NCBI GenBank assembly: GCA_903865745.1
Contig: CAIPKV010000070.1
Location: forward strand, 99,898 to 163,897
Source: an uncultured Verrucomicrobia subdivision 3 bacterium
Lineage (GTDB): Bacteria; Verrucomicrobiota; Verrucomicrobiia; Limisphaerales; UBA11358
DNA length: 64,000 nucleotides
Direction: 5' to 3'
Part shown: positions 14,093 through 42,929 of the stretch, in pieces
Numbering within the stretch: the first letter of the stretch is position 1
Layout: every line of letters begins with the position of its first letter
Notes under the pieces: model-generated
The model's input: the letters and a program-made list of their open reading frames with translations, nothing else
Database searches by the model: none
What the model was told of the DNA's origin: nothing
Program-made: the position numbers and the translations under genes

Positions 14093-14172
14093 ATCGGATG
14101 TGGTTTCATCGTATTCATTCCGTCAATGGGCCGTTGTGTGCGTCAAGTTCTGCAATTTGGATTTCATGATAG

Positions 14173-16110: not shown

Positions 16111-16114
16111 GTTT

Positions 16115-16954
16115 TCATTGGGCTTGTAGGGCGATCAGCGCTTCCGCGTAGCGTTGGCCCAAGATCCGCGCGGATTTGGCGTCGAAATGCAAGTGATCGC
16201 CCCGATCCTTCAATCTCCGGGAGGAAACGCAGACGTAGTCTTTCACTGTATTGGTTAAATCTTGCAGCACCGCGTTGAACCTTTCCGTGTCTGCCAGATT
16301 ATCAGGATTAAAGGTTCCCAACTCGCCCGAGACGAAAGGGAGGTTGGGCGCGTCGAACTCCCGGCGCAGCCGCGCAATCAGGCTGGCCAGAGACTGGCCA
16401 TAGGTGGCGCTGGCGGCACGGTCGGCTTCGCCCTGATGCCAAATGATGCCCTTGAGGATGCCAACTTTTTGCGCCTCACGGACACGCTTAAGCATGTCAT
16501 CGTAAGGATGGGTGTGCGTGGCCTGATCTTCCGCCCCCGGTGCCCAAGCCTCGATGGATGTTCCGCCGACCGCGCAAGGAATCAAGCCTATGCGCATCCG
16601 GGGATTGGCCTCTGCCATTTGTTTACCGAACGCCAAGCCCGGGCCGACGCCGGCAATAGGCTTGTCAAAATGCAGCGGGTCGGTGGCCGGTTTCCAAGTG
16701 AGTTCCTTAGTGAACATGAGGACGCGCGGGTTGGTTTTTTTGGATTCTTCGTCTATTTGCCCGCGTCCAGCCATGTTCGACTGGCCAATCAAGAGATAGA
16801 GATGGAAATTCGGATCGGGCAACCGCTTCGGAGTCTGGCCAAAAACGCTAACCACCTGCAGGAGGCAGAATAACGCCATCAAGACGGGATATTGTTTCAG
16901 AACATTGCCCCCGCACTGAACGACACCCAGGTTGTTGTTTTTCATTTTTTGCAT
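16115..16954 (-). CDS. Sialate/carbohydrate O-acetylesterase (SASA/DUF303, SGNH-like)
   Basis: LLIGQSNMAGRG (Ser nucleophile block), IPCAVGGTSI and IIWHQGEAD are the SASA-family blocks. Confidence 0.85.
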   Translation of the reverse strand: MQKMKNNNLGVVQCGGNVLKQYPVLMALFCLLQVVSVFGQTPKRLPDPNFHLYLLIGQSNMAGRGQIDEESKKTNPRVLMFTKELTWKPATDPLHFDKPIAGVGPGLAFGKQMAEANPRMRIGLIPCAVGGTSIEAWAPGAEDQATHTHPYDDMLKRVREAQKVGILKGIIWHQGEADRAASATYGQSLASLIARLRREFDAPNLPFVSGELGTFNPDNLADTERFNAVLQDLTNTVKDYVCVSSRRLKDRGDHLHFDAKSARILGQRYAEALIALQAQ

Positions 16955-18522
16955 GAAATGGCCTTGGTGTTTTTCGGCAGGCGATTGCCACTCTGCGAAA
17001 TCTGTTCCAGTTCATTGGCGCTGGCTTGAACCAGACAATTGGGCAAGCCCGTCACTTTGCAGTTTGATAACCCAATTTCAGAACTTTCGGCCGATTCCAA
17101 AACCGCAATACCATCGGCCTGAAGGTTGGAATCACGAAGCGTGAATCCATTGACATCCTCCAGAACAAATGCCGGCCGTTTCTCCTCGCCAGAGTAACTG
17201 AATTGGATTTCGTTCAGCTCGATATTCTCCGCGTGCCGGATGAACATCCCATACGAAGGCAGGCTTCCAAAAAAGAATTGCTCAGGATAGCGCTTTTCAT
17301 CCTCGGGAACAGTTCTTTCAGCCTTGTCGGCAGGCCCCATTCCCGGAAAGCGAATGACGATGTTATCCAGCCGGATACCTGAAACCTTGTGCCCGGGAAT
17401 CCCCGTGATCATGATTCCCGAACGGAGCTTTTCAGCGGTGGTCACCGTGGCGCGGACGTTGCTGATCGTGATATTTTTCAACGCCCCGACTTTCACCGGT
17501 GAGCCGTCCGACTCGGGCGTCTGGTAAGCGGCCCCTCGATTCCCCAGGCGAATGAATAGCGGCCCCTCAACCTGATCCATGATGATGTTTTGTATCAATA
17601 TATTTTCCAGGGTTCCGCCATCAACACATTCCAGCTTGATCGCGCCCATCTTGACATCCCGCATCACACAATCAGAGACGATGATATTCCTGAAGCCGGC
17701 CCGGGATGAGGTGCCGCACTTGAAAGCGGCCGTATCGCTGCTGATGACACAATTTTTTACAAAAATATTTTCGCAGGGTTTCCCGAAACTACTCTTGAGA
17801 CAAACCGCGTCGTCGCCCGAGGAAATATTGCTGTCCGAGATGAAAACATCACGGCATCCGTCAATGTCAATTCCGTCGTTGTTTTGATTGGCCCGATGGC
17901 TGATGTTCACACTCCGGATATGGATGTTGTCGCAATCCACCAGATGGACACCCCAGGATGCCGGGTTATTCAGGCTCACATTCTCCAACTGGACATTTTG
18001 ACACCGGTAAAATCGCATCAACATAGGCCGGCGTCCGAGTTCCTTTTGTCCGGCGATATGAACTGGAAACGTGTCCGGCTGCCCGCGCCCGTCAATCATG
18101 CCGGGACCTTCAATCCTTACATCTACCGCCCGATCTGCCACCAGCAGCGCTTGAATGAATTCTGAGGCGGTTAGCACCTGTCCGGTTGGAGATTTTTGAT
18201 TGGCGACAACTTCTCCGGAGCCCGGATTGCTGGTGGGATAGTCCGCCAACGAACGGCTCCCCAGCAACTCGGCTCCGCCTTGCAATGACAGCCAGACATG
18301 ACTTTTGAGATAGAGCGTTCCCGTTACAAATTGACCCGCTGGAATCAACACCCTGCCGCCACCCTGTTCATGAACTTGATCAATTGCTTTTTGAATCTGG
18401 GCGGTGTTGATTGCTTTTCCGTCGCCGACAGCTCCGCAATCTGCAATTGAAACATTCAGGGCCAATGCATTCAGTTGGCCGGAGGCAGCTATGAAAAGAA
18501 TTATGCCAGCGAAATATTTCAT
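16942..18522 (-). CDS. Glycoside hydrolase family 28 (parallel beta-helix)
   Basis: Signal peptide MKYFAGIILFIAASGQLNALA, then IADCGAVGDGKAINTAQIQKAIDQV. GH28-like strands NNDGIDIDGC, SGDDAVCLKS and GAIKLE. Confidence 0.8.
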   Translation of the reverse strand: MKYFAGIILFIAASGQLNALALNVSIADCGAVGDGKAINTAQIQKAIDQVHEQGGGRVLIPAGQFVTGTLYLKSHVWLSLQGGAELLGSRSLADYPTSNPGSGEVVANQKSPTGQVLTASEFIQALLVADRAVDVRIEGPGMIDGRGQPDTFPVHIAGQKELGRRPMLMRFYRCQNVQLENVSLNNPASWGVHLVDCDNIHIRSVNISHRANQNNDGIDIDGCRDVFISDSNISSGDDAVCLKSSFGKPCENIFVKNCVISSDTAAFKCGTSSRAGFRNIIVSDCVMRDVKMGAIKLECVDGGTLENILIQNIIMDQVEGPLFIRLGNRGAAYQTPESDGSPVKVGALKNITISNVRATVTTAEKLRSGIMITGIPGHKVSGIRLDNIVIRFPGMGPADKAERTVPEDEKRYPEQFFFGSLPSYGMFIRHAENIELNEIQFSYSGEEKRPAFVLEDVNGFTLRDSNLQADGIAVLESAESSEIGLSNCKVTGLPNCLVQASANELEQISQSGNRLPKNTKAISCKK

Positions 18523-18526
18523 GTCG

Positions 18527-20890
18527 TTACGTTTTTTTGAAGCTCAACAAGATTTTCTGTGGCCGGCCGGCTTCGCGGTCTTCGACATGGATCCGCCACA
18601 CGTTCTCGCCAGCGGCCTCGACCGGTTTCACCTGGCAACCGGCGGCGGATCCGGCAACCAGCGGCTTCATGCTGTAAATAAATAAATCGCCTTCGCGAGC
18701 GCCCGCATCGGTCAGTTCGATGTTGATTCCGTTCGGAGAGGGCTTGACGCTCTTGAGGTCAGCTGCCCCGCAGTAGATGTGGAGGTTTGAGCCGATGACC
18801 ACCGGCTGTCCGGGATGGTCGTCAAGATCGGTCAGACAGAGGTGCTGGCAACCGCTGGCGGGCAGCGCGGGCGTTTCCCACCGACCGGTGGCGATGCCCA
18901 GGAACCGGTTGTCCCAGAAAGACCAGACCGCATAACGGTGCGCCGGATTGAGGCCGGCTTTGGCGAAGTCCAGCGTGATGGCCTGTTCCTGCCGCCCCGG
19001 ATTCCACAAGAGAGCGACCGTCCAATCACCCCACGGGCGTTGGACATGGCTGATCAGCCGGGGCCACTCCTCGCTGGAGCAAAGGTCCAGGATTTGGGTG
19101 TGTTCCTTGGCGGGCGGAGTCAAGATTTCGGTCATGCGCCAATAGGGTTTGAAAATGTCCCATTGCCAGAAATCGGAGGTGAAGGCCGCGCCGGAGGAAA
19201 GCCCCATCATGCTGGCATAAGTCCTGACCATCGCCCAGCCGTCGTCAATGTTACCCACGTCCTTCAGGCCGGTGGCCAGGTAATAGCAATCATTGTCCAC
19301 CGCGAACCATCGGCCATTGAGGTCGTAAGAGCGCAGGACTTGATCAACGGCCTTGCGAACTCCACCGCGATAGGCATCCGAACTGGTGCGGCTGGCATCC
19401 ACCAGCCCGACGGTCGCGCGGTCAGGCGCTTCCGTGCAAAAAAGAATATAAGCGCCCTCGCCGGCCGCCTGGCGGATGTTGATGTAATGTTCGCGGAGGA
19501 TTTCAAAGGTGGTTTTTTTCTTCTCATACCAGCCGCCCCCACCGATGTTATTGAAATCGAGCTTAAGATAGGTAAAGCCATTCGTCACCGCATGGTGAAC
19601 CCGATCCGCTATGTAGGCCTTGGCCCGCGGCGCCGTGGGATCAATCCATCCGGTTTCATCCGGCCGGAAGGGCGACTCTTTTTTGAACTTTTTGCCCCAG
19701 ACCGTCTCCAGATTGGCTGGATCATTCAGCCAAGGCGCTTTCACTCCAATCATGGTCAAGGCCATCCAGAGCCCCGGCCGGGCTCCCGTCGCGGCAATTT
19801 TCCGGGCATAGAACGACATTCCCTTGGGAAATTTTGCATTCGCGTCCCAGTTGCCATCAAAATCCTGATAGCCGTCATCAATTTGAATCACGGCGGGCCG
19901 CAGCCGGCCGGCGGATGCCGACACGATGTCCACGAGGCCAAGAACATCCTCGCCGGTGATTTTCGAGGTCTTCAGATACCAGCTACACCAACCCGAAAGC
20001 GCCCCCTTATCCGAGCGGGCGTGATGCGTCTGCGCCACCCAGTCGGCTTGGCGTTGCAGGGCCACGCCGGGCTTCTCCATGAGCAGGATGGCTTGCTGTC
20101 CCCAGCGGGTTTCGCCGGGATCCACCTGCACGCCGCTCATACTTGACTCGATGCTGAAGGAAGTCCGGCCATTACCTTCATAAATGACGCTGGAATTCAG
20201 ATAAGCAATGGGATCACCCACCGGGGCAACTAGGAAGCCCACCCCGTCACGGCGATAGAAACCTCCTCTTTCCCTGATTACCAGGCGGTTGGTGAGCGTG
20301 CTAAGCGCACAAACGGCACCTGGCAACTGGCTTTGAAAGTTACCCGTCAGCCGGGTGATGAGCCAGTCGGCTGGATTACCCTTCACGGAAAATCCGGGGG
20401 CTTCGGTTTGCGCCGGCGTCAGGCTCGACACTTTAATGGGCCGCCCGCCACCATTGCGGATGCCCGCTTGAAAGAGAACCCCGGACACCCCCGGAATCTG
20501 GCCCAGTCGAAGCATTAGATCCAGATGGTCAGGTTCAAAATGGATGGTCGAGACGGCAACGATCGCCTGGCCATAGGGCGTTGATTCAGTGGTATTGGTG
20601 ATGGTTTGAATCAAGCCGCTATCAGAAGTGAAACGACGTTGCTTCCCCTCAATTTCGAGCAAGGCAGAAAACTGGGAGGGAAAAGCCGCCAGCCCGGGCG
20701 CCTGCAATGTTACTGAGCGACCATCCCTTGAATAAACAGCCGCAACCGGGTTTGGGTTGGACCCGGGTGACTGCGCCAGGCAGCTCGCCAGCGAGAACAA
20801 CAGGACTGCGAAAAAACCGGTTTTTCTTTCCAACGTGTCCACCTTAGCGATTGGCCAGTTCAAAATTGATGCAAATATTTCAATGCTCAT
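18527..20890 (-). CDS. GH36-like alpha-galactosidase / alpha-N-acetylgalactosaminidase family protein
   Basis: TIM-barrel blocks SGWCSWY, VIQIDDGYQDFDGNW..AKFPKGM and FTYLKLDFN are typical of clan GH-D (GH36/GH27). Confidence 0.7.
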   Translation of the reverse strand: MSIEIFASILNWPIAKVDTLERKTGFFAVLLFSLASCLAQSPGSNPNPVAAVYSRDGRSVTLQAPGLAAFPSQFSALLEIEGKQRRFTSDSGLIQTITNTTESTPYGQAIVAVSTIHFEPDHLDLMLRLGQIPGVSGVLFQAGIRNGGGRPIKVSSLTPAQTEAPGFSVKGNPADWLITRLTGNFQSQLPGAVCALSTLTNRLVIRERGGFYRRDGVGFLVAPVGDPIAYLNSSVIYEGNGRTSFSIESSMSGVQVDPGETRWGQQAILLMEKPGVALQRQADWVAQTHHARSDKGALSGWCSWYLKTSKITGEDVLGLVDIVSASAGRLRPAVIQIDDGYQDFDGNWDANAKFPKGMSFYARKIAATGARPGLWMALTMIGVKAPWLNDPANLETVWGKKFKKESPFRPDETGWIDPTAPRAKAYIADRVHHAVTNGFTYLKLDFNNIGGGGWYEKKKTTFEILREHYINIRQAAGEGAYILFCTEAPDRATVGLVDASRTSSDAYRGGVRKAVDQVLRSYDLNGRWFAVDNDCYYLATGLKDVGNIDDGWAMVRTYASMMGLSSGAAFTSDFWQWDIFKPYWRMTEILTPPAKEHTQILDLCSSEEWPRLISHVQRPWGDWTVALLWNPGRQEQAITLDFAKAGLNPAHRYAVWSFWDNRFLGIATGRWETPALPASGCQHLCLTDLDDHPGQPVVIGSNLHIYCGAADLKSVKPSPNGINIELTDAGAREGDLFIYSMKPLVAGSAAGCQVKPVEAAGENVWRIHVEDREAGRPQKILLSFKKT

Positions 20891-20904: not shown

Positions 20905-23900
20905 TCAGGGGCTTACCATCCGATAGAACTGTTGCATGGCATTGGTCGGAACCGGACTGGTATAATTAAATTGCCCATTCCCAGGGAAGGTGTTCGAAGT
21001 TTCCATCGTCCATTGTGCCCACGACAATGCCAGGTTCGTCGTAGTGAACAGCCGCCAGGGCTGTCCGGCCTGGCCCGTGCCGCCAAGCTGCAAACCGCCG
21101 CCGCCGTTCAGCCAGAGCACGTTTGTGAAAACGATCGGGGCCGGGGGGGTGATCGTGAAGGCGAAACTGGTGTTAGTGCCCAGATAATTGGCATCCGCGG
21201 CGACTAAGTTTGTGACATAATAGCTGCCAATGTTTGTCGGCGCGTTCGCACTTAAGTAGGTCGTTCCGGTAGTGCCAACATAGTTTGTGGTTCTCGTGCC
21301 ACTGGAACCGCTGATCACGATGTCGGGACCTTGACCCATGCCATTATAAATAAAGTTTGTTCCACTATAATTCACCGTGGTATTGGTCGGGTTGACCACC
21401 TGTGTCACCGCGTTCGTGCTGGGCAGGTAATAGCTGTCGCCTGAATAGATGGCTTGGATGGGGTAAGTGCCCGCGTTGAGCGCGTTGTTGGTGCAAAGGG
21501 CGGTTCCATTCGCAATGACGTTGGTGGCAACCGCGGTTCCGCCCACCGAAAACACCACGTTGCCTGTTGCCGCCGCCGCCGTGGTGCCGTTGGTTTGCAC
21601 CGTCGCGGTGAAAACAACTGCCTGGCCATAGACCGACGGGCTAGCGGGCGAGGCATTTAAGCCCAGCGTCGTGGCCCGAGGCACGACGGAGTTTGGATTG
21701 CGAAACCGGAAAGTGCGGGTTATTGCGTTTGTCTGGAGCGCGGCAATATCCTGATAATTGGTGCTGCCCAATTTTAGATTATAGGTGATATCCCACTTTA
21801 GATTCGCGCCATTGTAATCCGCCTGCCAGAAATCATTGCCGTTTACCGTCTGGTTGACAGCTGACCAGTTGGTTCCCACCAGTTCCTCCACGAGGGGATT
21901 CTGATAAGTGGATGCCCCGGTGAAGGTCACCGGCACATAGTTGAGGCCGCCCGTCACGGAAAATTGCGCAAAGTCATTTGTCACCCCAATGGCAATGCTG
22001 GGATAGGTTTGCACCAGCATCCCCGCCGAGATATTCAGCAAAAGGCTGTTGCCGATGGCCTCGCGTAATACCATTTTATAAGTGTTAGCGTAATTCGTGG
22101 CAGCCGTGGCCATATTGATGTCAGGACCGTAATATTCACCCGGCACAGAGGGCAGATAAATACGCTCAATGACTGCCTGCACATAATCCCCCGCCTGGAG
22201 CGTGGTCACGCCCGGAGGCGGCACGATGTCAATGGAGGATCCTGTGTAACCCGGGGCCAGACTATGTTCGATCAGATAAGGCGGCACATTATCCACCCCA
22301 TTGATCCGCGCCTTCCATGAGCGGATAATATAACCTTTAACTCCCGGACTATAACTTGTATCGCCTCCACTATAAACAAGACTATGAATGGAGATCCATG
22401 GCTGATTGTTGGTCAGGGCAACCGCCAAGCCGATGTTTTTGTTTTGTCCCGAGGTTGCGGCGCTCCATTCCCTGACCGCATTGGTTTGGTTGCTGTATCC
22501 GTAAGCCAGATTCGTTCCGTTATTGTAGGCATAACTGTCCCCCGGCATCTGAAAAAAGACCAGTCGGTTGAAGGAGAGGTTGGAATTGACGTTGACCGTC
22601 AACTGATGCAGCCCCCGGGTGTAGTCATCAGACCGGCCGAGCGAGGCGCTGTAGCTCAAAGCCATCTTGCCATCGTCGGTCTGGCCGGCATACGTCGCTT
22701 GCGTGAGGTTGGGACAATAGCGGGCATACTGCGTGCGCATGCGCCGATGTTGATGCTGAGTGTTGCCACTGTCGTAATAGCGCAAGAATTCCGCACCGCC
22801 AAGATTGATGCCCCAACCACCGGTCTGGCCGTTGGTGTTGAGCAACAGGATCGGACGCGAATCGGCCCCGTCATTGTCGGTCAGGACGTGCTCCACATCA
22901 TAAGTCAGCGATTCACCGCAATTGCCCAGCGCTGACTCATCCCACTGCTGATTCTGGTTGCCGTTACCATATCCATATTCACATAACTGGGAATGCGTGG
23001 CCGCCGGCACCCCGCCCCAATTCTGACCGGCCATCGTGAGTTCCAAATTCAAATTGGTATTGGGTGGCACCGTCAGCAGGGTCAGCCCATGAAACCATTG
23101 ATTGGCAAACATCGGGTAACTGGAGGGCGTATCCCAATCCTTTGACAACTGCACCGGAAGCCCCACCGGGTTCAGACTGGCGTCTCGCAACACCGCCGTG
23201 ATGCCAGGTATGTAAAAGGGGACACCGTCAAAATTGATTCGCACCACGCGCGGGGTGGGACTGTTATTCGTTACTGTTACCTGTGCGCGAAGGATGCCAT
23301 CGTCACCAGCGGTGCCACTGGCGGGAAGACTCACGTCATACCATCCCCGGTCGGTATCGTAATTCACGGCCAGGCCGCCCCCTGCGGGCAGGACGGGCGT
23401 GACCGCCAGCGGCAGCGGCGCAGCCTCCGTGACCACTGCGTTGGTCAGGGACCAAGCCACATTGGTCGCGACAGGATAAATGACCAACCCCACGGATCCT
23501 TGCTGGCTGGTTTGCCAGTTGTTTATGGCCGTCGTCACCGTGACCGTGGCATTGGTGGGATTGAAACTGATGGCGGAGCTGCCGGCGCTGGGGAGAAAAA
23601 TGAAGCCGGTGCCGTTGCTTGCCTGCAAGGCCCCGCCCACGCCGTAAGTCAAGAGGGTATTGTAAAGGTTCGTCAGCGTCAGCTTCATTTGAAGGGTCGC
23701 ACTTGATATCGTGTTGGATGGCGCGAGCCTCAGGACAAAGCTCAGGCGATCCGGCCAGGAGGCCATCTCCAAACCACACTGGTTCGTATCGAGCGGCAGC
23801 CCGCCAGCTTTGACCTTTTGCCAGCGCCGCTGGAAATATTTACCGCACTCAATCAGCGCCGTATTGGCGGTCAGGGTTCCAACATTATTGGTGACGCTGT

Positions 23901-25953
23901 TGGTAACCACCTGGCACGACAGGCTAACCGGCGGCGAACTCGTTGGAAAACTGGCCGCCCAGCTTTCGGTAAGGACCGCGGATTCCGGGCTGGGAATAGC
24001 TAATGGGAACAGGGTTGTGAGGGTCAGGTTGGCCGAATTGAACGACATTCCGTAGCGACTGGTTTTAATGCCATATACAGAAGACGCCGGGCCGTTGGAC
24101 CAGAACATAAACCCGTAGTCCTGGACATTGGTAAAAACCAGAGGCGGCAGCGATGCTATGCCCGCAGGATTGTTTACCAGGGAATCAATCACCAGATAAA
24201 GTGTGTTCCCGGAAACCGTCAGGTGCGCGGCGACCCAAAGTCCGGCGACCGCCACGGCGACGTTGGTGGGAGCGTTGCCGGTCTGGCTTGTCCAGGTCAT
24301 GAGCGGATATTGCGCGCCAGGAGAAGCGCCCAAGTAACCCATCTCCACCGTGACCGCCGGTCTGGCAGTGAACGCGGCGGTTCCAGACACAATCAACGGC
24401 GACAACGAAGCGTTGGGAAGATTATATCCAAAATTAAAATCCAAAACATTCGTGCCGCCGTTATTGCCCACCGTCAAACCGGCGCAAGTCCAAGGCTGTG
24501 TCTGGCTCAGCACACTCACACCAAATACGGCTTGCGTGCCCGTCGTGGCGCCCAGCGTGATGACGCTGTTGGAGCAGGAACCGCCGCTGACGCCCACCAG
24601 CGCGCCCGCGCGAATGGTTGTGGCTCCATGATAGGTGTTGTCACCATAAAGCGTCAGGGTGTTGGCGTTGGTCTTCACCACCCCTGTCACAAAGGTTCCG
24701 GCCGTGTTGTCCTGAATCACCCCAGTTAGGGCCAGGTCACTCGTCCCGCCAAACACCAACTGCTGACCTGCCCCGGTCTGCGCCCCGCCGTATCGGAGGT
24801 TAAACGGCGACGCCGTGAAGGTCGCCAGCCCGCTGCCGTTGTTATTGACATTGATGATGGAGGCGTTGCCGGTAATGCTCCGGGTCGTGCTCGCCGCTGC
24901 CCCGCCGTAATTGATGGTGCAGGGACCGTTGGCGACGCCCTGCCCCGCCATCGCCAAATAGGGGTAGGAACCCAGCGTGGCAAAGTTAGTCGTGATGAGG
25001 GTGCCAGAATTAAAGATGATGGCGGTAAAATTGTTGGCCGCATTATTCAGCGTCAAGGCACCGCCGCCGGTTAAAAAAAGTCCGCCGGAGTTGTCCAAAG
25101 CCGTGACGACACTGTTGATGGTCAGCATCCCGCCGCTGCCGGCATTGGCCAGATTGAAATAGCTGGAATTAGCCAAATTGGTAATGTTAAGGCTTTCGTT
25201 GATCACGGCGCTGGCGTTAGCCGCCACGGTGAACGCCGTGTAAGCGCCGCTGACCCCAAACATAAAATTGGTGCCGGTCCCATTGAGATTGCCGCCATTG
25301 ACACCGAAGCTGATGCCGCTGTTGTTGCCGGTGAAGTTGGTCGCGTTTTGTGAACCCAGATCCAGCGTGCCGCCGTTGATGGTGATGGCGCTGTTGGTCG
25401 CCAGCGCCCCGCTGCCGGTGAGCGCCAGCGTGCCGCCGTTCACCGTCGTCGCCCCAGTGTAGGTGTTCGCGTTGTTGAGCGTCAGCGTGCCCGCGCCGGA
25501 TTTGGTCAGGCCCATCCCGGTTCCACTGATGATCCCCAAAACCGTCAAGGTCTTGGCCGCGTTCACATTCCAGATCTGGCTCGCCCCAAGGGCCAGATTG
25601 TTCGTGATGGCCAGATTGACTGTGGCCGCCGACATATCGATCCCACTCGCGCCATTGGTCAGGGTGCCCGCCCCGGTGATGGCGATGTCACCCAAGGCGC
25701 CCGCCACACTGATGCCGCCCCACGTCTTGGAAGTTCCGAGTGTCAATCCCGCACCCAGCGATGAGCTGTTCCAGAGAGCAATGTCGCCGGAACCAGGCGA
25801 GCCGTTGGCGCCCGAACCGCCGGACCAGACCCCGGCGGTGGCCCCGGTAAGGTCGGTTCCTGTCCCCGTCTTAGTGGCGTTCGCCGCACAGACCGGCCCC
25901 GCCGTGAGCATCAGCATAGCAAGGGTCGTGGTGAGGTAATTGATTCTGTGCAT
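20905..25953 (-). CDS. Giant surface protein P1: PATR beta-helix, an ~800-aa uncharacterised domain, Ig-like (Big_3-type) and MBG-like domains, and a conserved C-terminal tail
   Basis: Signal peptide MHRINYLTTTLAMLMLTAGPVCA at ATG 25953; the 5' region is homologous to that of P2. Many G.GTLTL.NANTY(T/S)GATTVNGGTL repeats. Nt ~21688-24135 (aa ~620-1435) are paralogous to ORF 6244-8742. The protein ends ...AMQQFYRMVSP. Confidence 0.9.
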   Translation of the reverse strand: MHRINYLTTTLAMLMLTAGPVCAANATKTGTGTDLTGATAGVWSGGSGANGSPGSGDIALWNSSSLGAGLTLGTSKTWGGISVAGALGDIAITGAGTLTNGASGIDMSAATVNLAITNNLALGASQIWNVNAAKTLTVLGIISGTGMGLTKSGAGTLTLNNANTYTGATTVNGGTLALTGSGALATNSAITINGGTLDLGSQNATNFTGNNSGISFGVNGGNLNGTGTNFMFGVSGAYTAFTVAANASAVINESLNITNLANSSYFNLANAGSGGMLTINSVVTALDNSGGLFLTGGGALTLNNAANNFTAIIFNSGTLITTNFATLGSYPYLAMAGQGVANGPCTINYGGAAASTTRSITGNASIINVNNNGSGLATFTASPFNLRYGGAQTGAGQQLVFGGTSDLALTGVIQDNTAGTFVTGVVKTNANTLTLYGDNTYHGATTIRAGALVGVSGGSCSNSVITLGATTGTQAVFGVSVLSQTQPWTCAGLTVGNNGGTNVLDFNFGYNLPNASLSPLIVSGTAAFTARPAVTVEMGYLGASPGAQYPLMTWTSQTGNAPTNVAVAVAGLWVAAHLTVSGNTLYLVIDSLVNNPAGIASLPPLVFTNVQDYGFMFWSNGPASSVYGIKTSRYGMSFNSANLTLTTLFPLAIPSPESAVLTESWAASFPTSSPPVSLSCQVVTNSVTNNVGTLTANTALIECGKYFQRRWQKVKAGGLPLDTNQCGLEMASWPDRLSFVLRLAPSNTISSATLQMKLTLTNLYNTLLTYGVGGALQASNGTGFIFLPSAGSSAISFNPTNATVTVTTAINNWQTSQQGSVGLVIYPVATNVAWSLTNAVVTEAAPLPLAVTPVLPAGGGLAVNYDTDRGWYDVSLPASGTAGDDGILRAQVTVTNNSPTPRVVRINFDGVPFYIPGITAVLRDASLNPVGLPVQLSKDWDTPSSYPMFANQWFHGLTLLTVPPNTNLNLELTMAGQNWGGVPAATHSQLCEYGYGNGNQNQQWDESALGNCGESLTYDVEHVLTDNDGADSRPILLLNTNGQTGGWGINLGGAEFLRYYDSGNTQHQHRRMRTQYARYCPNLTQATYAGQTDDGKMALSYSASLGRSDDYTRGLHQLTVNVNSNLSFNRLVFFQMPGDSYAYNNGTNLAYGYSNQTNAVREWSAATSGQNKNIGLAVALTNNQPWISIHSLVYSGGDTSYSPGVKGYIIRSWKARINGVDNVPPYLIEHSLAPGYTGSSIDIVPPPGVTTLQAGDYVQAVIERIYLPSVPGEYYGPDINMATAATNYANTYKMVLREAIGNSLLLNISAGMLVQTYPSIAIGVTNDFAQFSVTGGLNYVPVTFTGASTYQNPLVEELVGTNWSAVNQTVNGNDFWQADYNGANLKWDITYNLKLGSTNYQDIAALQTNAITRTFRFRNPNSVVPRATTLGLNASPASPSVYGQAVVFTATVQTNGTTAAAATGNVVFSVGGTAVATNVIANGTALCTNNALNAGTYPIQAIYSGDSYYLPSTNAVTQVVNPTNTTVNYSGTNFIYNGMGQGPDIVISGSSGTRTTNYVGTTGTTYLSANAPTNIGSYYVTNLVAADANYLGTNTSFAFTITPPAPIVFTNVLWLNGGGGLQLGGTGQAGQPWRLFTTTNLALSWAQWTMETSNTFPGNGQFNYTSPVPTNAMQQFYRMVSP

Positions 25954-26007
25954 CGCAGATTTCTTTAATTGGCATTTTATAAAGGTTGTCATTATTTGGA
26001 TACAGGA

Positions 26008-29000
26008 TCACGGCATCTCGACCCAACGATAAAATCGCTGGCTGTGTCCGCTGATTGAATCGGCAACGGTTTGCACCGCGCCCGTTCCGGTTTGTGGCAG
26101 CGCCAAAGGAGACCAAGCCGACCCGCCAAGAGCGTCATTGTATTCGACCCACCACGTCACATTGTTGGGGACGGCGCAAGCGGATTGCACGCTACCGGCA
26201 TTGATTTGAATACCGGAAACCGGGAGCGAATTGGTCCACACCGGAATGCGAAAGGGCGACGCCGGCAGGCCGGCGCGGTTGTAGAGGTTCGTTCCCATCG
26301 GCACTCCCTTCCAAGCATAACGAACGAAGACAGGATTGGGCACCGACGGCGAAGAGACCACCACCGTCCCATTGGGGTCAATTTGCGCCGTGGCGGACAC
26401 ATAGAGCTGGTTGGACTCCGCAATTTCAAACCACTGCGGCGATACTCCCGGCAGTTCTTGAACCGGGTCCAGATTGTTCTTTTGCCCGGTCATCAACCCG
26501 CCGGCCACAAAGTCGAACGCAATTCGAATCTGATTGGTTTCAATCGCATAACTCCGGAATAACGGACCGCTGGGCACCACATTGGTGAAACCATAGTCGT
26601 GGTTCAAAGACAGCATCGCGAGCCGCGTCCCGACATCCACTTTGTTGCCGGGATGAATGGCGTTGGGATCATCCACATCGAAAATGACGGCCATCCCGGT
26701 GTTGGTCGCCGTTCGCAGGGTGAGCGTTTGCGCCTCACGGGTGTATGGCCAAAGGTTGTCGGTGCCGACGAGGCTCGGCAACTGGACAAAGTAGAAAGGC
26801 AGATTCGGCTGCTGCCACCGGCTGCGCCAGTCCTGGATCATGGTGGGAAACAATACGCGATACATCATGGTTCCACTGCCGCCGAGCGACTCTCCCTGAT
26901 ACCAGATCACGCCGCGCAGGCCGAACGGAACCAGGGGCGAAATCATGGCGTTGAACATCGCGCCGGGAACAAAGGTGGGGCTGGTCTGGAGGCCTTGAAA
27001 ATAGTTGGCCAGGCTCTGAGTGGCGAAAGCTTGCAGTTCGGGGATGGCATTCATCGCAGCCACACTGCTCCAGGCCTCCATCGGGGTGCCGCCATAAGAC
27101 GACTCCAAAATCCCGATGGGAACCACCATGCCTTGAACGCTGTTGCTCTGGAACAAGGTGCGCGCAAAGAAATAGGCCGCCGCGCTCAAGTTGGACACGC
27201 TGGCCGGAGAGCAGGGTGTCCAGGACCAATCGAGGGTGGCGTCCCAGGCCGGGTTGAGTGAGCCGGTTTGCCGGACGCGCATGTGCCGGATCAATGGGTA
27301 GTTGGCCGCGGCAGTTTCTGCAGCCGCGTTGGATACTGACTGATTGGGGTTATTGCCATTGACCGGGAAATACATATTGGACTGGCCGGAAGCCAGCCAG
27401 ACATCCCCAACCACCACATTGGTGAAAGACAGATTGGTGACCCCGGCAATCGAGATGCTGAGTTGCTGCCCATTCGTGTTAACCGGCATAGAGTCCAAGT
27501 AGACCCCCCACGAGCGGTCCGGAGCGGCGGTGGCCAGCTTAGTCTGTCCGCCAAAAGTCACCGTAATAGTTTGCCCCGGCTCGGCGGTGCCCCAGACCGG
27601 AACGGCCATGTCCCGCTGCAAGACCATATGGTTGGCGAACACTCCCGGCACGGACCAGGGCGGAACGACGCGAATGGTGCCGTTGTTGGTTAGCTGGCCC
27701 AAATCCCACTTCACGCCATTGCTCAACGCGGGAAGGTTGCTGGAACTAAACGTGCCGGAATAAGCCGACGCTTGAAACAACTGGAAAACATCTCCGGCGG
27801 TCAATGAAATATTGTTTGGATTGGTGACCACCAACGTGCCTCCATAAGTGATCTGGTTTAGGACCGCTACGCGGTTGTTGTAATTGGTAAAGTTCCTGCC
27901 CAATTGAAAAGCCGACACGCTGCCGACGGCCAGGGTCAAGCTACTGTTGATCGCCAGCTGGCCGCTGCCGGAAATCCCCGGAGACAAGGCGCCGCCGGCC
28001 TGGACGGTCACCGGCCCGTTGATGGCGCCAGCGCCAGAGAGAACTCCACCGCTCGCCAGCAAGGCACTGGTGGCCAGCGCGCCATTCACCGTCAGACCGC
28101 CCTTAGCCACGGTCGTGGCGCCGCCCAGGACACTGGTGCCGGTGAGGGCTAGGTTGCCCGTGCCCTGTTTGACCAGGCTGCCGGGGCCGCTGAGACTGCC
28201 GTCGTAAGTGGCATTCAAGTTGTTGGTTCCAACGCTAAGAGTGACCGGAGAGCTGCCGTTGAAGGTTAGCGCCAGACCGCCGCTGCCCGCCAGGCCACCC
28301 AAGGTCGCGGCGTTGACTGAAAACTTCAGGCCACCATCGCTATTCACCGTCACCAAACTGGCTGCCAAAGCATTGCCATTCCCCAAAATCACGCTGCCGC
28401 CGTTGATGGTGGTGGCGCCGCTGAAACTATTGGCGAGATTGAGGGTCAGATTACCGGAACCATCCTTCTCGAGCCCGGTCGCTCCGGCGATGCCGCCGCC
28501 GCTGCTGTTGAAGATGTAGTTTCCGCCGCTATTGTTCACGGTCACCCACCCGGGGGAAACGAGCGTGGCCACGTTCACCGTGTATTGGCGGTTGTTAGCG
28601 TCATTAAAGAGCACTTGGTCGCCATCATCGTAGTGCGTCCGGTCTGCGACGCTCTGCGCGGTGAACCAGTTCGTGTCGGTCTGGAGGTTGTTCCAGCGCG
28701 TCGGATTGGCGGCATCCGCGCCCGTCCAGGTCAGATTCACGACCACAGAATTGCTTCCCACAGCCACGAACAGTTCGCCATTGGTCACTTGCAATAGCGC
28801 CGTGCTGCCGCCGACAATTCCACCGCCGGTCACAACCACACCTGGCACGGCCCCGCCGACCTGCCCGCCGGAAGCCTTGCTGATGATTTTGTAAGCCCCG
28901 TTGGTCAGCGCCGTCCCGGTGTTGTTGACGGTAATAGTCGTTGCGGCGGCAAGAGTGAGGGTGCCGTTGGTGACCAGAAATGCCGACTGGCCGGCAGAGT

Positions 29001-30753
29001 AACTGACCGAAACGGTGCCAGCGGCGGTATTGAGGTTGCCGCTCAGCGTGCCCGTCGAAGCCGCGCTGTTGAATAAGGTTTGGCCCGGCGCCAGGTTTAG
29101 GCCGGAGGCTAACCCGGAGGCATCCAAAATGGCGCCATTGGTCACGCTGAGCAAAGCCGAGTTGCTGATGGAACCGCTGCCACTCAGAGCCAGCGTGCCG
29201 GAATTAATGAAAGTCGGGCCGCTGTAGGTGTTGGCTCCGGTCAGGGTCAACGTCCCGGCAGCACGCTTGATAACCACGCCCGAGCCACTGACAGCGGCGC
29301 CAAAGGTTTGCGGGTTTGGGTTGTTGAAAACGAGCGTGGAGTAATTCGTGATATTGCCCGTCACGAGGCCGTTCTTGGTGGCGCCATCCCCGAGTTGCAG
29401 AGTGCCGGCCCAGACCGTCGTCGGCCCGCTGTTGGTGTTGTTGCCGTAAAGCGTTAGCGTGTTGTTATTGGTCTTCACCACCCCCGTCACATAGGTTCCG
29501 GACGTGTTGTCCTGAATCACCCCCGCGATGGCAATGTCGCTGGGCCCGCCAAACACCAACTGCTGACCGGACCCGGTCTGCGCCCCGCCGTATCGGAGGT
29601 TGAAAGGCGAACCCGTGAAGGTCAACAGCCCGGTGCCATTGTTGTAAATGTTGATGACGGCGGCATTGCCATCAAGTTGCTTTGCCGTGCTCACCGCCGG
29701 CCCCGCATAGTTGAAGGTGCAGGGACCGCTGCCGGTATTTTGTCCCATCACCCCAAAAAACGGATAAGATCCGAGGGTGCCAAAGTTGGTCGTCGTCACG
29801 GTGCCGGCATTCCAACCCAACGCGGAAATGATGTTGCCCGGATTGTTCGCCACCAAGGTGCCGCCACCGCTCAACCATAGCTCGCTACCAGAATTCAAGG
29901 CGATGATCTTGCCGTTGATGGTCAGCGTCCCGCCGCTGCCCACACTGGCGATCTGGTCATAGTTGACCCCTGCCACATTGGTGATGTTGACATTCTCGTT
30001 GACCACCGCCGCCGCATTGGCCGGCACGGTAAAAGCGGTATATCCCCCGGTAAGCCCGATCAGATTATTGGTGCCGGTGCCATTGAGATTACCGCCGTTA
30101 GCGCCGAACGTGATGCCAGTGTTGCTGCCAAGAAAATTAGTGGCGTTTTGTGACCCCATATCCAGCGTGCCGCCGTTGATGGTGATGGCGCTGTTGGTCG
30201 CCAGCGCCCCGCTGCCCGATAGGACCAACGTGCCGCCGTTGACCGTCGTCGCCCCGCTATAAGTATTCGCGTTATTGAGCGTCAGCGTGCCCGCGCCGGA
30301 TTTGGTCAGGCCCATACCGGTTCCACTGATAATCCCCAAAGCCGTCAAGGTCTTGGCCGAATTCACATTCCAAGTCTGACTGGCTCCAAGGGTCAGGTTG
30401 TTCGTGATGGCCATATTCACCGTGGATGCCGACATATCGATCCCACTCGCGCCATTGGTCAGTGTGCCCGCGCCGGTGATGGCGATGTCACTCAAGGCTC
30501 CCGAGACGCTGATGCCACCCCACGACTTGGAAGTTCCGAGTGTCAATCCCGCACCCAGCGAGGCGCTGTTCCACAGGGCAATATCGCCGGAACCGGGCGA
30601 GCCGTTGGCTCCCGAACCGCCGGACCAGACCCCGGCGGTGGCTCCGGTAAGATCGGTTCCCGCCCCCGTCTTGGTGGCGTTTGCCGCGCAAACCGATCCC
30701 ATCGTGAGCAGCAACAAAACAAAGGTCGTGGTGAGCAAGCTTATTTTATGCAC
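26008..30753 (-). CDS. Giant surface protein P2: PATR beta-helix fused to a C-terminal SASA-type O-acetylesterase domain plus the conserved tail
   Basis: The first ~450 aa are colinear with P1. Start proposed at GTG 30753 (VHKISLLTTT...) by homology with the P1 start context (aaagaaatctgcgATG versus gaaggaatctgctGTG); the listed ORF extends to 30783. Nt ~26239-27663 encode NHMVLQR...VWGTAEPG...DVWLASGQSNM...GVIWYQGES, the SASA esterase blocks. The protein ends ...SQRFYRWVEMP. Confidence 0.9.
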   Translation of the reverse strand: MHKISLLTTTFVLLLLTMGSVCAANATKTGAGTDLTGATAGVWSGGSGANGSPGSGDIALWNSASLGAGLTLGTSKSWGGISVSGALSDIAITGAGTLTNGASGIDMSASTVNMAITNNLTLGASQTWNVNSAKTLTALGIISGTGMGLTKSGAGTLTLNNANTYSGATTVNGGTLVLSGSGALATNSAITINGGTLDMGSQNATNFLGSNTGITFGANGGNLNGTGTNNLIGLTGGYTAFTVPANAAAVVNENVNITNVAGVNYDQIASVGSGGTLTINGKIIALNSGSELWLSGGGTLVANNPGNIISALGWNAGTVTTTNFGTLGSYPFFGVMGQNTGSGPCTFNYAGPAVSTAKQLDGNAAVINIYNNGTGLLTFTGSPFNLRYGGAQTGSGQQLVFGGPSDIAIAGVIQDNTSGTYVTGVVKTNNNTLTLYGNNTNSGPTTVWAGTLQLGDGATKNGLVTGNITNYSTLVFNNPNPQTFGAAVSGSGVVIKRAAGTLTLTGANTYSGPTFINSGTLALSGSGSISNSALLSVTNGAILDASGLASGLNLAPGQTLFNSAASTGTLSGNLNTAAGTVSVSYSAGQSAFLVTNGTLTLAAATTITVNNTGTALTNGAYKIISKASGGQVGGAVPGVVVTGGGIVGGSTALLQVTNGELFVAVGSNSVVVNLTWTGADAANPTRWNNLQTDTNWFTAQSVADRTHYDDGDQVLFNDANNRQYTVNVATLVSPGWVTVNNSGGNYIFNSSGGGIAGATGLEKDGSGNLTLNLANSFSGATTINGGSVILGNGNALAASLVTVNSDGGLKFSVNAATLGGLAGSGGLALTFNGSSPVTLSVGTNNLNATYDGSLSGPGSLVKQGTGNLALTGTSVLGGATTVAKGGLTVNGALATSALLASGGVLSGAGAINGPVTVQAGGALSPGISGSGQLAINSSLTLAVGSVSAFQLGRNFTNYNNRVAVLNQITYGGTLVVTNPNNISLTAGDVFQLFQASAYSGTFSSSNLPALSNGVKWDLGQLTNNGTIRVVPPWSVPGVFANHMVLQRDMAVPVWGTAEPGQTITVTFGGQTKLATAAPDRSWGVYLDSMPVNTNGQQLSISIAGVTNLSFTNVVVGDVWLASGQSNMYFPVNGNNPNQSVSNAAAETAAANYPLIRHMRVRQTGSLNPAWDATLDWSWTPCSPASVSNLSAAAYFFARTLFQSNSVQGMVVPIGILESSYGGTPMEAWSSVAAMNAIPELQAFATQSLANYFQGLQTSPTFVPGAMFNAMISPLVPFGLRGVIWYQGESLGGSGTMMYRVLFPTMIQDWRSRWQQPNLPFYFVQLPSLVGTDNLWPYTREAQTLTLRTATNTGMAVIFDVDDPNAIHPGNKVDVGTRLAMLSLNHDYGFTNVVPSGPLFRSYAIETNQIRIAFDFVAGGLMTGQKNNLDPVQELPGVSPQWFEIAESNQLYVSATAQIDPNGTVVVSSPSVPNPVFVRYAWKGVPMGTNLYNRAGLPASPFRIPVWTNSLPVSGIQINAGSVQSACAVPNNVTWWVEYNDALGGSAWSPLALPQTGTGAVQTVADSISGHSQRFYRWVEMP

Positions 30754-30825
30754 AGCAGATTCCTTCGTTTGGGATGGTCGCAAGTTGTATTCAAATTAAA
30801 CTTTTTATTTTGTTTCTTTTTATTC

Positions 30826-31632: not shown

Positions 31633-34600
31633 TTAGGGTTGCGACAGCCGATAGTATTGCTGGTCGTTGGTGGCGTTCGGATCGGTGAACAGCAAGAGGC
31701 CGTTGGTGCCGAATGTGTTGGTGGTGAGCGGCCACCACGGGAATGACAGATTGGTCGTCGTCTGCACAACGGCCTGATAATTCGGGATGCCATAGAAGGT
31801 GATGTTCACCAGGCCATTGGTTGGCTGGCCCATCTGGGCGGGGCCGGCGGCGCTGTAAACATCCACCAGAACATTTGCCGTGGCGGTGCCGCCAAAGCCG
31901 TCGCTCACGGTGTAGGTGAAACTGTCATTGGCATTGCTGTTGGCACCGGTGCTCGGAACATAGAAAATGTTGGCACTGTTGGTCATGATGGTCGCGCCCG
32001 TGCTGCTGGTTCCCAGGCTTTCCAATGTGTTGGTATCGCCGTCCACCCCATCCGTAACATTGGTGAGCAGGTCGGCAATGATGATCTTGAGCGTTGTGCC
32101 CTTGGCCCGGTAGTAAGTTGCGTCCACAGCCACCGGCGGATGGTTGGTGACGATCTGTTCCAGCGTGTTCGTGCTGCCGACATAATTGCCATCACCCAGA
32201 TAGGCCACGGTTAAGACGTTCGTCCCACGCGGCAGATTGGTGATGGAGAGGCTCGTGGCTGAGCCACTACTCACGCTGTTCGTGCTAATCGGCCCATTGG
32301 TGGTGGAGAATACCACGTCGCCCGTGGCAAGCGCCGGCAGCGTCGCGGTGAAGGCAACGGCATCCCTGTAGCCGGAGGGATTGTTGGTGGAGGCCGCTCC
32401 AACCGAAGTGCTGGCCGGACTGATGGTCAACGTGCCGTTGGTGTAGCTGATGGTGTAGTTGGCGGATGTCTGGCCGAGGGGAGTGATGGGGTAACTTCCG
32501 GCATTGGTCGCGCCTTGCGACGAACCATCATAACTCAAACTGCCGCCCAACACCGCCGGGGTTTCGCTGTTCACAAAACCGGAGTAGGTCACGCCGTTGC
32601 CGCCAGCAAACGGCACTCCGCCGTAGGTTATGTTGGTGTTGTTCGCCGTAATGCCGAGCGGAGCCTGGTTCACGGTTTGGGTCAGGCTGTTGGTGCTGGG
32701 CAGATAATTAGCATCGCCAACATAGATGGCACTAATCGTGTGCGACGGCACGGTGAGCAAGCTAGTGACATAGGTGGCCTGACCGCTCGAAAGACTGTTG
32801 GTGGTAACCGGCGTTCCATCCACGCTGAACACCACATTGCTGGTGGCATTCCCGGCCGTCACGCTGTTGGTTTGAATCGCCGCCGTGAACGTCACGGTCT
32901 GGCCATAGGTTGAGGCATTCAACGACGAATCCAAGGCGAGCGTGGTGGGCTGGGTGTTCAAGACTACATGCAGTTTGACGAGACCGCCGCCGGCGATAAT
33001 CGTGCCAGTGGTGTTTGCCGCCAGTCCCGCGCCGCTGATGACGGGCGTGGAGTTGAACGAGCCGCTGCTGCCGGTGGGGTTGTAAGTGATCAAGGTATAA
33101 TCCCCCGCGCCGAGGGCGGAAGGCGTGGCCACTTTCAGCGTATTGTTGTTCAGCGTCAGTGAACCGGTAATCGTGAGCGGCGAACCCTGATTGTTGGTCG
33201 CCAAAGATCCTGAGCCAAAGATGACATTGCCGCCGATCGTGCCGCTGCCGCCCAAGACGCTGCCACTGTTGACCACCGTAACCGAGTTGGTGCCAATCGA
33301 ACCGTTGACCAGCAGTGTCCCGCCGCTCACCGTGGTGACACCGGAGTAGGTGTTGTTTCCCGAGAGTGTCAGGGTGTTAACGTTGGTCTTCACCAGCGCG
33401 GTCAGGAAAGTGTTTGCCGTCGCATCTTGAATCACACCCGTGATGGTGATGTCGCCCGAACCGCCCAAGGTCAAAGTCTGCGGTGTGGCGCTGGACTGCG
33501 ATCCGTAGGGTGAATAAAAAGTGGAACGATTAAAGGTCACCGCCCCGCTGCCGTTGTTCAGAATGGTCGGAGTAAGATCTCCAGAATTGAACAGGATGGC
33601 ATTGGTGGTGGCCGGGCCGGCATAAATAAAAGTGGCCGGCCCGTTGCCGACGACTTGCCCGAGAGTCACAAACCCACCAGTTCCCAAGGTGGCGAAGTTG
33701 GTGCTGATAATGGTGCCACCGGTGTTCCAAACATTGATGGCATAATAGCTGGGGTTGGTATTGTTCAGGGTCAAGCTCCCGCCGCCTTGCAGCCAGAGCG
33801 TCCAGTTTTGCGGGCCTTTGACACTCCCGTTTACGGTTAAGCTGGCACCACTGACGACACTGGCCAGGGCTTCATACCCGCTGTTGGCCAAGTTGGTCAC
33901 CGCAATGTTTTCATTGACCACGGCGTTGCCGTTGGCCGCCACCTGCAGGGCAATCGCGGCACCGCTGGTGCCGACGATGGTGTTGGTGCCGGTGCCGTTG
34001 AGATAACCGCCATTGACGCCGAAACTGATGCCGTTGTTGTTGCCCTGATTATTGGTCGCGTTCTGTGATCCCATGTCGAGCGTTCCGCCGTTGATGGTGA
34101 TAGCGGCGGCGGTTGAGAGCGTGCCGTTATTGGTGAGAGCGAGTGTGCCGCCATTGACGGTGGTCGTGCCAGTGAATGAATTTGTCGTAGTGATTGTCAG
34201 CGTGCCCGCGCCGGACTTCGTTAATGCCGTGCTGCCCGCAATTCCACCGCTGCCGCTGATGGTGTAATTCGCCGTCGGATTGGTGACCGTGACGCTCGCC
34301 GGGCTGATGCTGGAGTTCAACGTGACCGTGCCGCCCGAACCCACTGTGTTGTTAAACACCACGGAGTCGCCATCCACGTAATACGTGCTGGCACTGGCGT
34401 TGTCTTTCCAGATGGTGTTGTTGGCGATGTTGTTGACATCCCAGGTGCCGTTGCCGCCCGTCCAACTCAAGGGTTCGGTGCTGCCGCTGCTTTGCAGATA
34501 CAGCGTGTTGCCCACGATGGCCAGAGTGCCGCCCGCACGGAAGGGTAGCGAGAGCGTCATGCCGTTGGTGGTGGCCGGGCCGCCCGAACCCCACGTCATC

Positions 34601-37470: not shown

Positions 37471-37689
37471 GTTTACTGATTCTTCGATTTCGGGTTTTTG
37501 ATACTTACTTGGAACGGGGTCAACTTCACGACAAAGTCGGGTTGCATTGAGAATTGGCGATGCGGGATGGCGCAGGAATTTCAATTCCATTTGGGCTGTG
37601 CCATCCCTTCGGATCGCATCATTTTTTGGATTTATGACAAACCGAGGCGCAAGCGGGTGGCCTGCGCCCCGGTGAATTTCAGTTCCAGT

Positions 37690-42807: not shown

Positions 42808-42929
42808 GGTGGTTTTATTTTTTCGTATGTCGATGGTTTGGGTTTGAGAATTTACCCGCGCCGGGGTTTTTAGTCCGGCGGGGTGGGTTGCGAAATTTGG
42901 GGGATATTGGATGGTCTGATTAATGCCAT

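Follow-up and report, generated by a model that had tools for sequence, protein, structure and literature searches.

A giant PATR-repeat protein of a Verrucomicrobiota polysaccharide locus carries a CE20 esterase and a conserved C-terminal tail

EstA of Pseudomonas aeruginosa, a GDSL/SGNH autotransporter, is an SGNH-fold esterase exported to the Gram-negative cell surface. Its esterase forms the N-terminal passenger and sits directly on a C-terminal beta-barrel, with no beta-helix. So far, the esterases of family CE20 have been examined only in free-standing form, with lengths of about 500-650 amino acids (aa). They consist of an N-terminal beta-sandwich, a central SGNH domain and another beta-sandwich at the C-terminus, and an inserted ancillary beta-sandwich is optional, being present in clusters I-VI (PMC12313940). 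The CE20 oxyanion hole is formed by a backbone Gly and the Gln of the GQSNM motif, and mammalian SIAE is an ancillary-less CE20 enzyme that works as a Ser-His dyad (PMC12313940). The protein described here, P2, is encoded in a 64,000-nucleotide stretch (the window; contig CAIPKV010000070.1) of an uncultured Verrucomicrobia subdivision 3 bacterium and places a CE20 core on a giant beta-helix: it comprises a signal peptide, a PATR beta-helix region, a CE20 esterase and a C-terminal module termed the RFYR tail. Extracellular polysaccharide handling by Verrucomicrobiota is poorly understood. No description of PATR-CE20 fusions or of the RFYR tail was found in the searchable literature, and searches on PATR proteins in Planctomycetes-Verrucomicrobia-Chlamydiae (PVC) bacteria and on the RFYR motif returned nothing relevant.

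The P2 gene runs on the minus strand from a probable GTG start at 30753 to a stop codon at 26010..26008 and encodes 1581 aa, as read from the list of open reading frames (ORFs) and the translation. The start codon follows a GAAGGA ribosome-binding site (30766..30761) at a distance of 7 nt, and independent gene calls return the same 1581-aa product. The ORF that contains the gene is slightly longer (26008..30783, minus strand, 1591 codons), and residue numbers (ORF aa) count from there. Structural details in the following lines refer to an AlphaFold model, with confidence given as the predicted local distance difference test (pLDDT).

26008..30753, minus strand: P2 gene
30685..30753, minus strand: predicted Sec signal peptide, MHKISLLTTTFVLLLLTMGSVCA followed by ANATK, with a V-C-A cleavage motif and no canonical lipobox, read by eye from the translation
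27670..30684, minus strand: PATR beta-helix region ("stalk"), ~1000 aa, with PF12951 and TIGR02601 repeats
27421..27669, minus strand: CE20 N-terminal beta-sandwich, ORF aa 1039-1121, model strands E25-E83, pLDDT 97-98, aligning with the N-terminal domain of 9EGA, 9H4U and 7KMM
26581..27420, minus strand: SGNH/SASA catalytic domain, ORF aa 1122-1401, PF03629 at 47 bits
27381..27379, minus strand: Ser1135 of GQSNM
26886..26884, minus strand: Leu1300, an unusual residue
26673..26671, minus strand: Asp1371, an unusual residue
26661..26659, minus strand: Ala1375, an unusual residue
26655..26653, minus strand: His1377
26242..26580, minus strand: CE20 C-terminal beta-sandwich, ORF aa 1402-1514, with LPASPFRIPV at its end, model strands E379-E473, aligned to the last residues of 9EGA, 9H4U and 7KMM
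26011..26241, minus strand: RFYR tail, 77 aa, modelled as a six-strand beta-sandwich (pLDDT 84), ending in QRFYRWVEMP and the stop codon

The initial annotation had described PATR repeats followed by a complete SASA-type esterase and a conserved tail within a locus of carbohydrate-active enzymes (CAZymes), and this order is borne out. In Pfam, PF12951 (PATR) matches four stretches of P2 with 99.7 bits and PF03629 (SASA) scores 47.4 bits against a cut-off of 24.8; in NCBIfam, the autotransporter-associated repeats of TIGR02601 are found in five stretches. The motifs DVWLASGQSNM, GVIWYQGES and NAIHPGNK are all present in the translation, and the whole esterase module (27669..26242, minus strand, ORF aa 1039-1514) fits the range first proposed for it, 26239-27663, to within 6 nt. 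Between the signal peptide and the CE20 module, 72% of residues are G, T, S, N, A or L, with 4-5 PATR cores. Comparison of the stalk with solved beta-helix passengers gives weak but significant matches to Ssp (8E7F, E 2.6e-6) and IcsA (5KE1, E 0.007). The prediction that this ~1000-aa region folds as a beta-helix is well supported by homology, and typical rung sizes would put its length at roughly 15-20 nm if it forms one continuous rod.

Sequence, fold and catalytic motifs all place the esterase module in CE20/SASA. Searched against the PDB with phmmer, the last 553 aa of P2 match PpCE20_II (9EGA, E 8e-88), Fl8CE20_II (9H4U, E 2e-81), XacXaeA, the founder of CAZy family CE20 (7KMM, E 2.9e-67), and mammalian SIAE (8F9O-8F9R, E ~1e-35). 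The AlphaFold model, which covers ORF aa 1030-1591 and used an alignment of 82 homologues, reaches a pLDDT of 91.3 and a predicted template modelling (TM) score of 0.92 for esterase and tail. In Foldseek it matches 7KMM at E 1e-47, with a TM score of 0.93 and a root-mean-square deviation of 2.2 Å over 480 columns, and the SIAE structures at E ~1e-37 to 1e-39. All three parts of the CE20 core are present in the model. The ancillary insert is absent, the alignments to 9EGA, 9H4U and 7KMM jumping chain residues ~220-400 (P2 is classed as "none" in this respect), and P2 is therefore an ancillary-less CE20 enzyme rather than specifically a "sialate" esterase. The sialate specificity raised in the initial annotation finds no support: the closest characterised relatives of the P2 esterase act on xylan and xyloglucan, and the genes of the locus point to pectin-like or fucosylated glycans. 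P2 deviates from CE20 in sub-type features, lacking both the ancillary domain and an Asp or Asn two residues before the catalytic His (position His-2).

Conservation was counted in an alignment of 121 homologues of the P2 esterase. The Ser of GQSNM is kept in 120/120 aligned homologues and the block V His in 121/121. P2 retains G1133-Q-S1135-N-M, the block II Gly (SSYGGT) and H1377, positions conserved in at least 116 of the 121. At His-2 the homologues have D (60), T (41), N (13), A (3), V (3) or E (1); other members of P2's own clade have T, V or N, and SIAE carries Ser. As the position varies and SIAE has Ser there, His-2 marks a sub-type and not the CE20 family. The initial annotation had made its reading depend on the catalytic Ser, His and Asp; the first two are in place and the triad-Asp position is Ala, which is not decisive given the SIAE dyad (PMC12313940). 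The absence of the triad Asp was accordingly rejected as decisive proof of inactivity, with the inactivating D513A variant of Fl8CE20_II, described below, kept as a caveat. Loss of the oxyanion hole through the change of YQGESN to YQGESL was also considered and rejected, since the CE20 hole uses the backbone Gly and the GQSNM Gln (PMC12313940). The altered Asn comes directly after a Ser that stands where the classical Asn would be, and changing that Ser (S434A) has only mild effects (PMC12313940).

Comparison of P2 with a 91%-identical orthologue gives ratios of nonsynonymous to synonymous substitution (dN/dS) of 0.175 for the CE20 module; the PATR end and the tail reach 0.31 and 0.39, respectively. 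Judged by these ratios and by departures at only 4 of 96 highly conserved columns, the esterase module is not decaying, and catalytic activity, predicted from the retained residues, is likely.

The RFYR tail is shared by all four giant PATR proteins of the window, P2 and its paralogues P1, P3 and P4, each of which ends in a ~77-aa module with the closing motif Q(R/Q)(F/Y)Y(R/L)xxxP. A conserved tail had been noticed at the outset, and it is indeed of the same type in all four.

26011-26241, minus strand: RFYR tail of P2
20908-21147, minus strand: RFYR tail of P1
31636-31854, minus strand: RFYR tail of a further giant PATR protein
37693-37926, minus strand: RFYR tail of a further giant PATR protein

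None of the four tails has a Pfam or NCBIfam match even at E<=10, the type IX secretion system (T9SS) model TIGR04183 included, and a Foldseek comparison of the tail fold with the PDB returns generic fibronectin type III (FN3)-like matches only, at E>0.1. A profile built from 12 tails finds 10,765 representative proteins (clusters at 50% identity) at E<=1e-3 among 1.84 billion. In 143/147 best matches the last tail copy ends no more than 6 residues from the C-terminus, whatever cargo precedes it, and one to five tandem copies occur. By analogy, this cargo-independent C-terminal placement resembles that of sorting or anchoring modules, and its occurrence in tandem would fit a binding function better than a signal that is cleaved off. 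Other means of attachment were sought in P2. It has no beta-barrel translocator (PF03797 / TIGR01414) in Pfam or NCBIfam at E<=0.01, and its C-terminus, QRFYRWVEMP, has no hydrophobic helix in the translation and is not a PEP-CTERM signal. Lipoprotein anchoring was rejected: GSVC before the A makes a poor lipobox, and neither P3 nor P4 has the Cys. With no barrel, lipobox or PEP-CTERM, P2 is left with the tail as its sole candidate attachment or export element.

The N-terminal part of P2 has a different kinship from that of its tail. The paralogues are arranged around P2 as follows.

20905..25992, minus strand: P1, a giant PATR protein with Big_3_5 and an RFYR tail, directly downstream of P2, identified by domain and pairwise comparison
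31633..42933, minus strand: P3 and P4, two more giant PATR proteins with RFYR tails, upstream and in the same orientation

The common N-terminus of P1 and P2 that the initial annotation had pointed out spans aa 4-486 of P2, at 71% aa identity. At the nucleotide level, 1307 nt within the first 1320 align, with 80% identity; the shared coding stretch corresponds to 29434-30735 in P2 and 24634-25935 in P1 (minus strand), with complete divergence afterwards. P1, P3 and P4 have 63-69% identical blocks in common at shifted positions. Such a pattern suggests module shuffling among the PATR paralogues of the window.

The tail of P2 is 60-69% identical to the tails of four CE20+tail proteins and 29-44% identical to those of four more distant ones; with P1, P3 and P4 its tail identity is only 20-23%. 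With a tail like those of the CE20+tail proteins but a P1-like N-terminus, P2 appears to have arisen by recombination of a P1-type beta-helix onto a cassette of CE20 and tail. The order PATR, CE20, tail recurs in P0179 (2112 aa), P0180, P0185, P0184, P0309 and P0012, and the PATR regions ahead of the cassette range from ~430 to 1560 aa (P0012, P0309, P0184, P0185, P0180, P2, P0179). The cassette also occurs behind a signal peptide alone (P0003, 562 aa) and behind a non-PATR N-terminal region (P0006, P0007, P0008 and P0009, ~900 aa). An identical 1581-aa protein (P0319) is found on 11 contigs of up to 286 kb. A contig scan of the GTDB genome set returned no close genome, only free-standing CE20 genes that are 36-44% identical. 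In related metagenomes, giant PATR proteins (P0384, P0391, P0392, P0397, P0415 and others) bear varied C-terminal cargo, for example a PF04185 phosphoesterase, PF13287/PF13290, PF21348 with fn3, PEP-CTERM, and true autotransporter barrels (PF03797). PATR rods thus seem to serve generally to carry diverse modules.

Taken together, P2 is probably a Sec-exported giant that joins a P1-like PATR region with a CE20+RFYR cassette, acts as a dyad esterase on an acetylated glycan and has in its tail a candidate export or anchoring element. The data establish its architecture and its assignment to CE20; we infer its activity, substrate, location and orientation. An extracellular location, for its part, would follow from the signal peptide read by eye and from the domain types. 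P2 would have been built by joining two pre-existing units, the P1-paralogous PATR N-terminal region and the CE20+RFYR cassette, which related organisms also have on its own. The Ser1135-His1377 dyad is most likely catalytic, with an oxyanion hole provided by Gln1134 and a backbone Gly, as in CE20 and mammalian SIAE. The most likely reaction of P2 is O-deacetylation, outside the cytoplasm, of a polysaccharide that is acetylated and either pectin-like or fucosylated; it would open the glycan to the GH28, GH29 and GH36-like enzymes (glycoside hydrolase families) encoded downstream. The beta-helix may act as a rigid spacer, as a glycan-binding rod or as both, and the RFYR tail is the best candidate for an element that directs export or holds the protein at the envelope. 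Were the tail the anchor, the esterase would be cell-proximal and the beta-helix would project outward, the reverse of the picture drawn initially, in which deacetylation took place at a distance from the cell surface. That picture is not supported, as the tail is strictly C-terminal and the enzyme adjoins it.

Several observations weigh against this reading. On the catalytic side, His-2 of P2 is Ala1375 (NAIHP), so the Asp or Asn of the ancillary-bearing enzymes is lacking; in Fl8CE20_II the Asp at this position anchors the catalytic water, and the D513A variant is inactive. The Asn of YQGESN and the Gly of D-I-G, each kept in 117/121 homologues, are Leu1300 and Asp1371 in P2, and both changes lie near the active site and are confined to P2 and its 91%-identical orthologue P0001. 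As to attachment, no anchor, secretion system or cleavage site of P2 has been demonstrated, no recognisable relative of the RFYR tail is found among known sorting domains (Pfam, NCBIfam, PDB fold), and the tandem tail copies argue against a simple cleaved signal. As to the substrate, it is a guess from neighbouring genes alone that points to an acetylated pectin-like or fucosylated glycan. The gene of P0012 (966 aa, PATR-CE20-tail; locus L086) lies among exopolysaccharide-synthesis genes (GT2 with PilZ, TPR, GT4, polysaccharide deacetylase) and not among glycoside hydrolases.

The orientation proposed here could be the wrong way round, with P2 fixed to the cell through its N-terminal region or beta-helix, the esterase forming a distal tip 15-20 nm out and the tail serving as a distal binding module. 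Beta-sandwich modules that stand in tandem at the end of a protein often bind carbohydrates, the FN3-like fold of the tail is without a sorting-domain signature, and enzyme-at-tip designs are known from SPATE (serine protease) and subtilase autotransporters, the latter including the 8E7F match. However, the mature N-terminus of P2 has no lipobox or anchor motif, its Cys not being conserved in P3 or P4, and there is no beta-barrel. True autotransporters are anchored by their C-terminus, and a position at the extreme C-terminus in 143/147 matches, with any cargo, is typical of sorting and anchoring modules. A distal esterase is therefore held to be unlikely, if still the most serious competitor.

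Improbable, too, is that the CE20 module is a pseudo-esterase, dead or very slow, that retains the fold and substrate groove and serves as an acetyl-glycan-binding head, P2 then being an adhesin or capture protein and deacetylation falling to the small SASA esterase and the alpha/beta-hydrolase of the locus. The Ala at His-2, set beside the loss of activity in D513A, would fit such a role, as would the Asn-to-Leu and Gly-to-Asp changes peculiar to the P2 lineage. Across highly conserved columns P2 departs at 4/96, the homologue median being 1. Two further esterases are available in the locus, and the only such domains in P1, P3 and P4 are binding domains of Ig-like or cadherin-like type. Nevertheless, P2 keeps the Ser nucleophile as well as the His, Gln and Gly, dN/dS is low at 0.175, a dyad-type CE20 enzyme with a non-acidic His-2 is active (SIAE), and members of the same clade have T, V or N at His-2. 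The Leu and Asp substitutions themselves are fixed in both P2 and the 91% orthologue.

The substrate proposed for P2 comes from its surroundings, listed here.

2946..20890, minus strand: downstream CAZyme row with a GH36-like gene, GH28, the small SASA esterase, an alpha/beta-hydrolase esterase, GH29, GH28, GH29 and three unknowns
16115..16954, minus strand: small SASA esterase, 222 bits
30950..31594, minus strand: small P_proprotein-like protein, 214 aa, with a PEP-CTERM end (VPEP, transmembrane helix, RR), between P3 and P2 and directly upstream of P2
42930..45104, minus strand: GspG-like N-methyl pseudopilin-type gene and AraC/periplasmic-binding protein (PBP) regulator, at the head of the gene row

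The two GH28 and two GH29 genes, the GH36-like gene and a RhaT-like transporter upstream in the P2 gene row make an acetylated pectin-like or fucosylated heteropolysaccharide the candidate substrate, and another CE20 cluster is tied to GH28/GH36 pectin loci (PMC12313940). The separate small SASA esterase reported in the initial annotation is real. The GH36-like assignment belongs to a 787-aa protein (18527-20890, minus strand) that has no Pfam match, is a distant relative of GH36 alpha-galactosidases (PDB 6LCJ, 3e-20) and weakly matches a beta-L-arabinopyranosidase model. Three proteins of the row, of 832, 457 and 673 aa (6244-8742, 8739-10112 and 12071-14092, minus strand), have no Pfam, NCBIfam or PDB sequence match and could be unclassified glycan-active enzymes.

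Synteny around the tail-bearing CE20 genes is partly conserved. The same pair of AraC/PBP regulator and GspG-like N-methyl gene adjoins a CE20+tail gene in locus L087 (6133-8351); in L084 (8622-9491) an N-methyl gene stands beside a PATR-CE20 gene, and the regulator was not seen there. The row may be connected with type II secretion or with a pseudopilus. A P_proprotein gene of similar size (~218 aa) precedes the 2112-aa orthologue P0179 (L085). In the window, the P_proprotein gene and P2 are separated by a terminator-like element at about 30835-30870, a GC hairpin with an A/T-rich stretch after it. An MmeI-type restriction-modification enzyme (1091 aa) adjoins a HipA_2-like kinase and DUF3037 pair at 48051-52997 (minus strand), and these genes form an islet of defence or toxin-antitoxin-like type at the border of the polysaccharide locus.

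A target other than a nutrient glycan, namely the exopolysaccharide or capsule of the cell itself or of a neighbour, with P2 acting in matrix remodelling or biofilm dispersal, would suit P0012 among its GT2/PilZ, TPR, GT4 and polysaccharide-deacetylase genes. The rows of the window, L084 and L087 are catabolic, however, with GH28, GH29, GH36-like, GH2 and GH130 enzymes, sugar transporters and AraC/PBP sugar regulators, which makes this target quite improbable. That assembly or gene calling joined a PATR gene to a separate esterase gene, as repeats like the 1.3 kb shared by PATR paralogues at 80% nt identity can mislead assemblers, is scarcely conceivable: the reading frame is unbroken, the identical product appears on 11 contigs from independent assemblies (a neighbouring gene in 57 index blocks), independent orthologues 47-60% identical keep the domain order, and the P1/P2 repeat lies at the far N-terminus, away from the PATR-CE20 junction.

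The reading preferred here, an exported dyad esterase with a C-terminal attachment or export candidate, invites a more speculative extension. The RFYR tail might be an undescribed cargo-independent C-terminal module for export or envelope attachment in Verrucomicrobiota and relatives. The four tail-bearing giant PATR proteins, the GspG-like pseudopilin gene and the AraC/PBP regulator might then form a surface "fibre" apparatus that captures and pre-processes polysaccharides, a counterpart of the SusCD and T9SS-displayed enzymes of Bacteroidota, with P2 as the first such fibre with a recognisable enzyme. This extension is tentative and, as a whole, doubtful. If P2 is active and surface-bound, it would exemplify how Verrucomicrobiota display enzymes to polymers without SusCD or T9SS; if it is an ordinary secreted esterase, what remains is a modest note on domain architecture. 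The natural Ala at His-2, together with two near-invariant changes, offers a ready test of the recently proposed distinction between water-mediated triad and dyad in CE20. The RFYR tail is the broader lead, as it marks thousands of proteins, and identifying its partner could reveal a sorting or anchoring route.

Among described systems, the CE20 enzymes XacXaeA (7KMM), Fl8CE20_II (9H4U) and PpCE20_II (9EGA) share with P2 the three-part core with GQSNM, at 34-35% identity, and like P2 they are encoded in polysaccharide-degradation gene rows. They differ in carrying a ~175-aa ancillary insert, which P2 lacks, and a water-anchoring Asp or Asn at His-2, where P2 has Ala. Furthermore, these enzymes are free-standing and ~640 aa long, whereas P2 adds a ~1000-aa PATR beta-helix in front and the RFYR tail behind. 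SIAE resembles P2 in having no ancillary domain and a non-acidic His-2 (Ser in SIAE, Ala in P2). The identity between them is 25-28%, and SIAE keeps the YQGESN Asn and the DLG Gly, both of which are changed in P2. SIAE is also eukaryotic with a sialate substrate, and nothing in the P2 locus suggests sialic acid.

The initial annotation had likened P2 to enzyme-bearing autotransporters, an analogy that fails on the missing beta-barrel translocator and on the position of the enzyme at the C-terminal, not the N-terminal, end of the beta-helix. Of the features of a type V autotransporter, P2 has the PATR beta-helix passenger and not the C-terminal barrel. SPATEs and the subtilase Ssp (8E7F) likewise join a PATR-containing beta-helix to a hydrolase, but in the order enzyme, helix, barrel, as opposed to helix, enzyme, tail in P2, which has no PF03797. 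Unlike EstA, P2 has a beta-helix, no barrel and a C-terminal esterase. The tailspike of cyanopodophage Pan3 (9VYH; Foldseek E 8e-12) places an esterase of related fold on an elongated fibre that meets surface polysaccharide, yet it is a viral trimeric fibre, 13% identical and devoid of PATR repeats or an RFYR tail. The tail itself recalls the T9SS C-terminal domain, PEP-CTERM, SLH and GW modules in being small, strictly C-terminal and cargo-independent; its tandem copies are reminiscent of SLH/GW wall-binding repeats, and it differs from PEP-CTERM in having no transmembrane helix. With its barrel absent, P2 is not an autotransporter, and by the tests applied it is not a T9SS or PEP-CTERM substrate. 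Its resemblance to enzyme-tipped autotransporters and esterase-bearing phage tailspikes is one of general design only.

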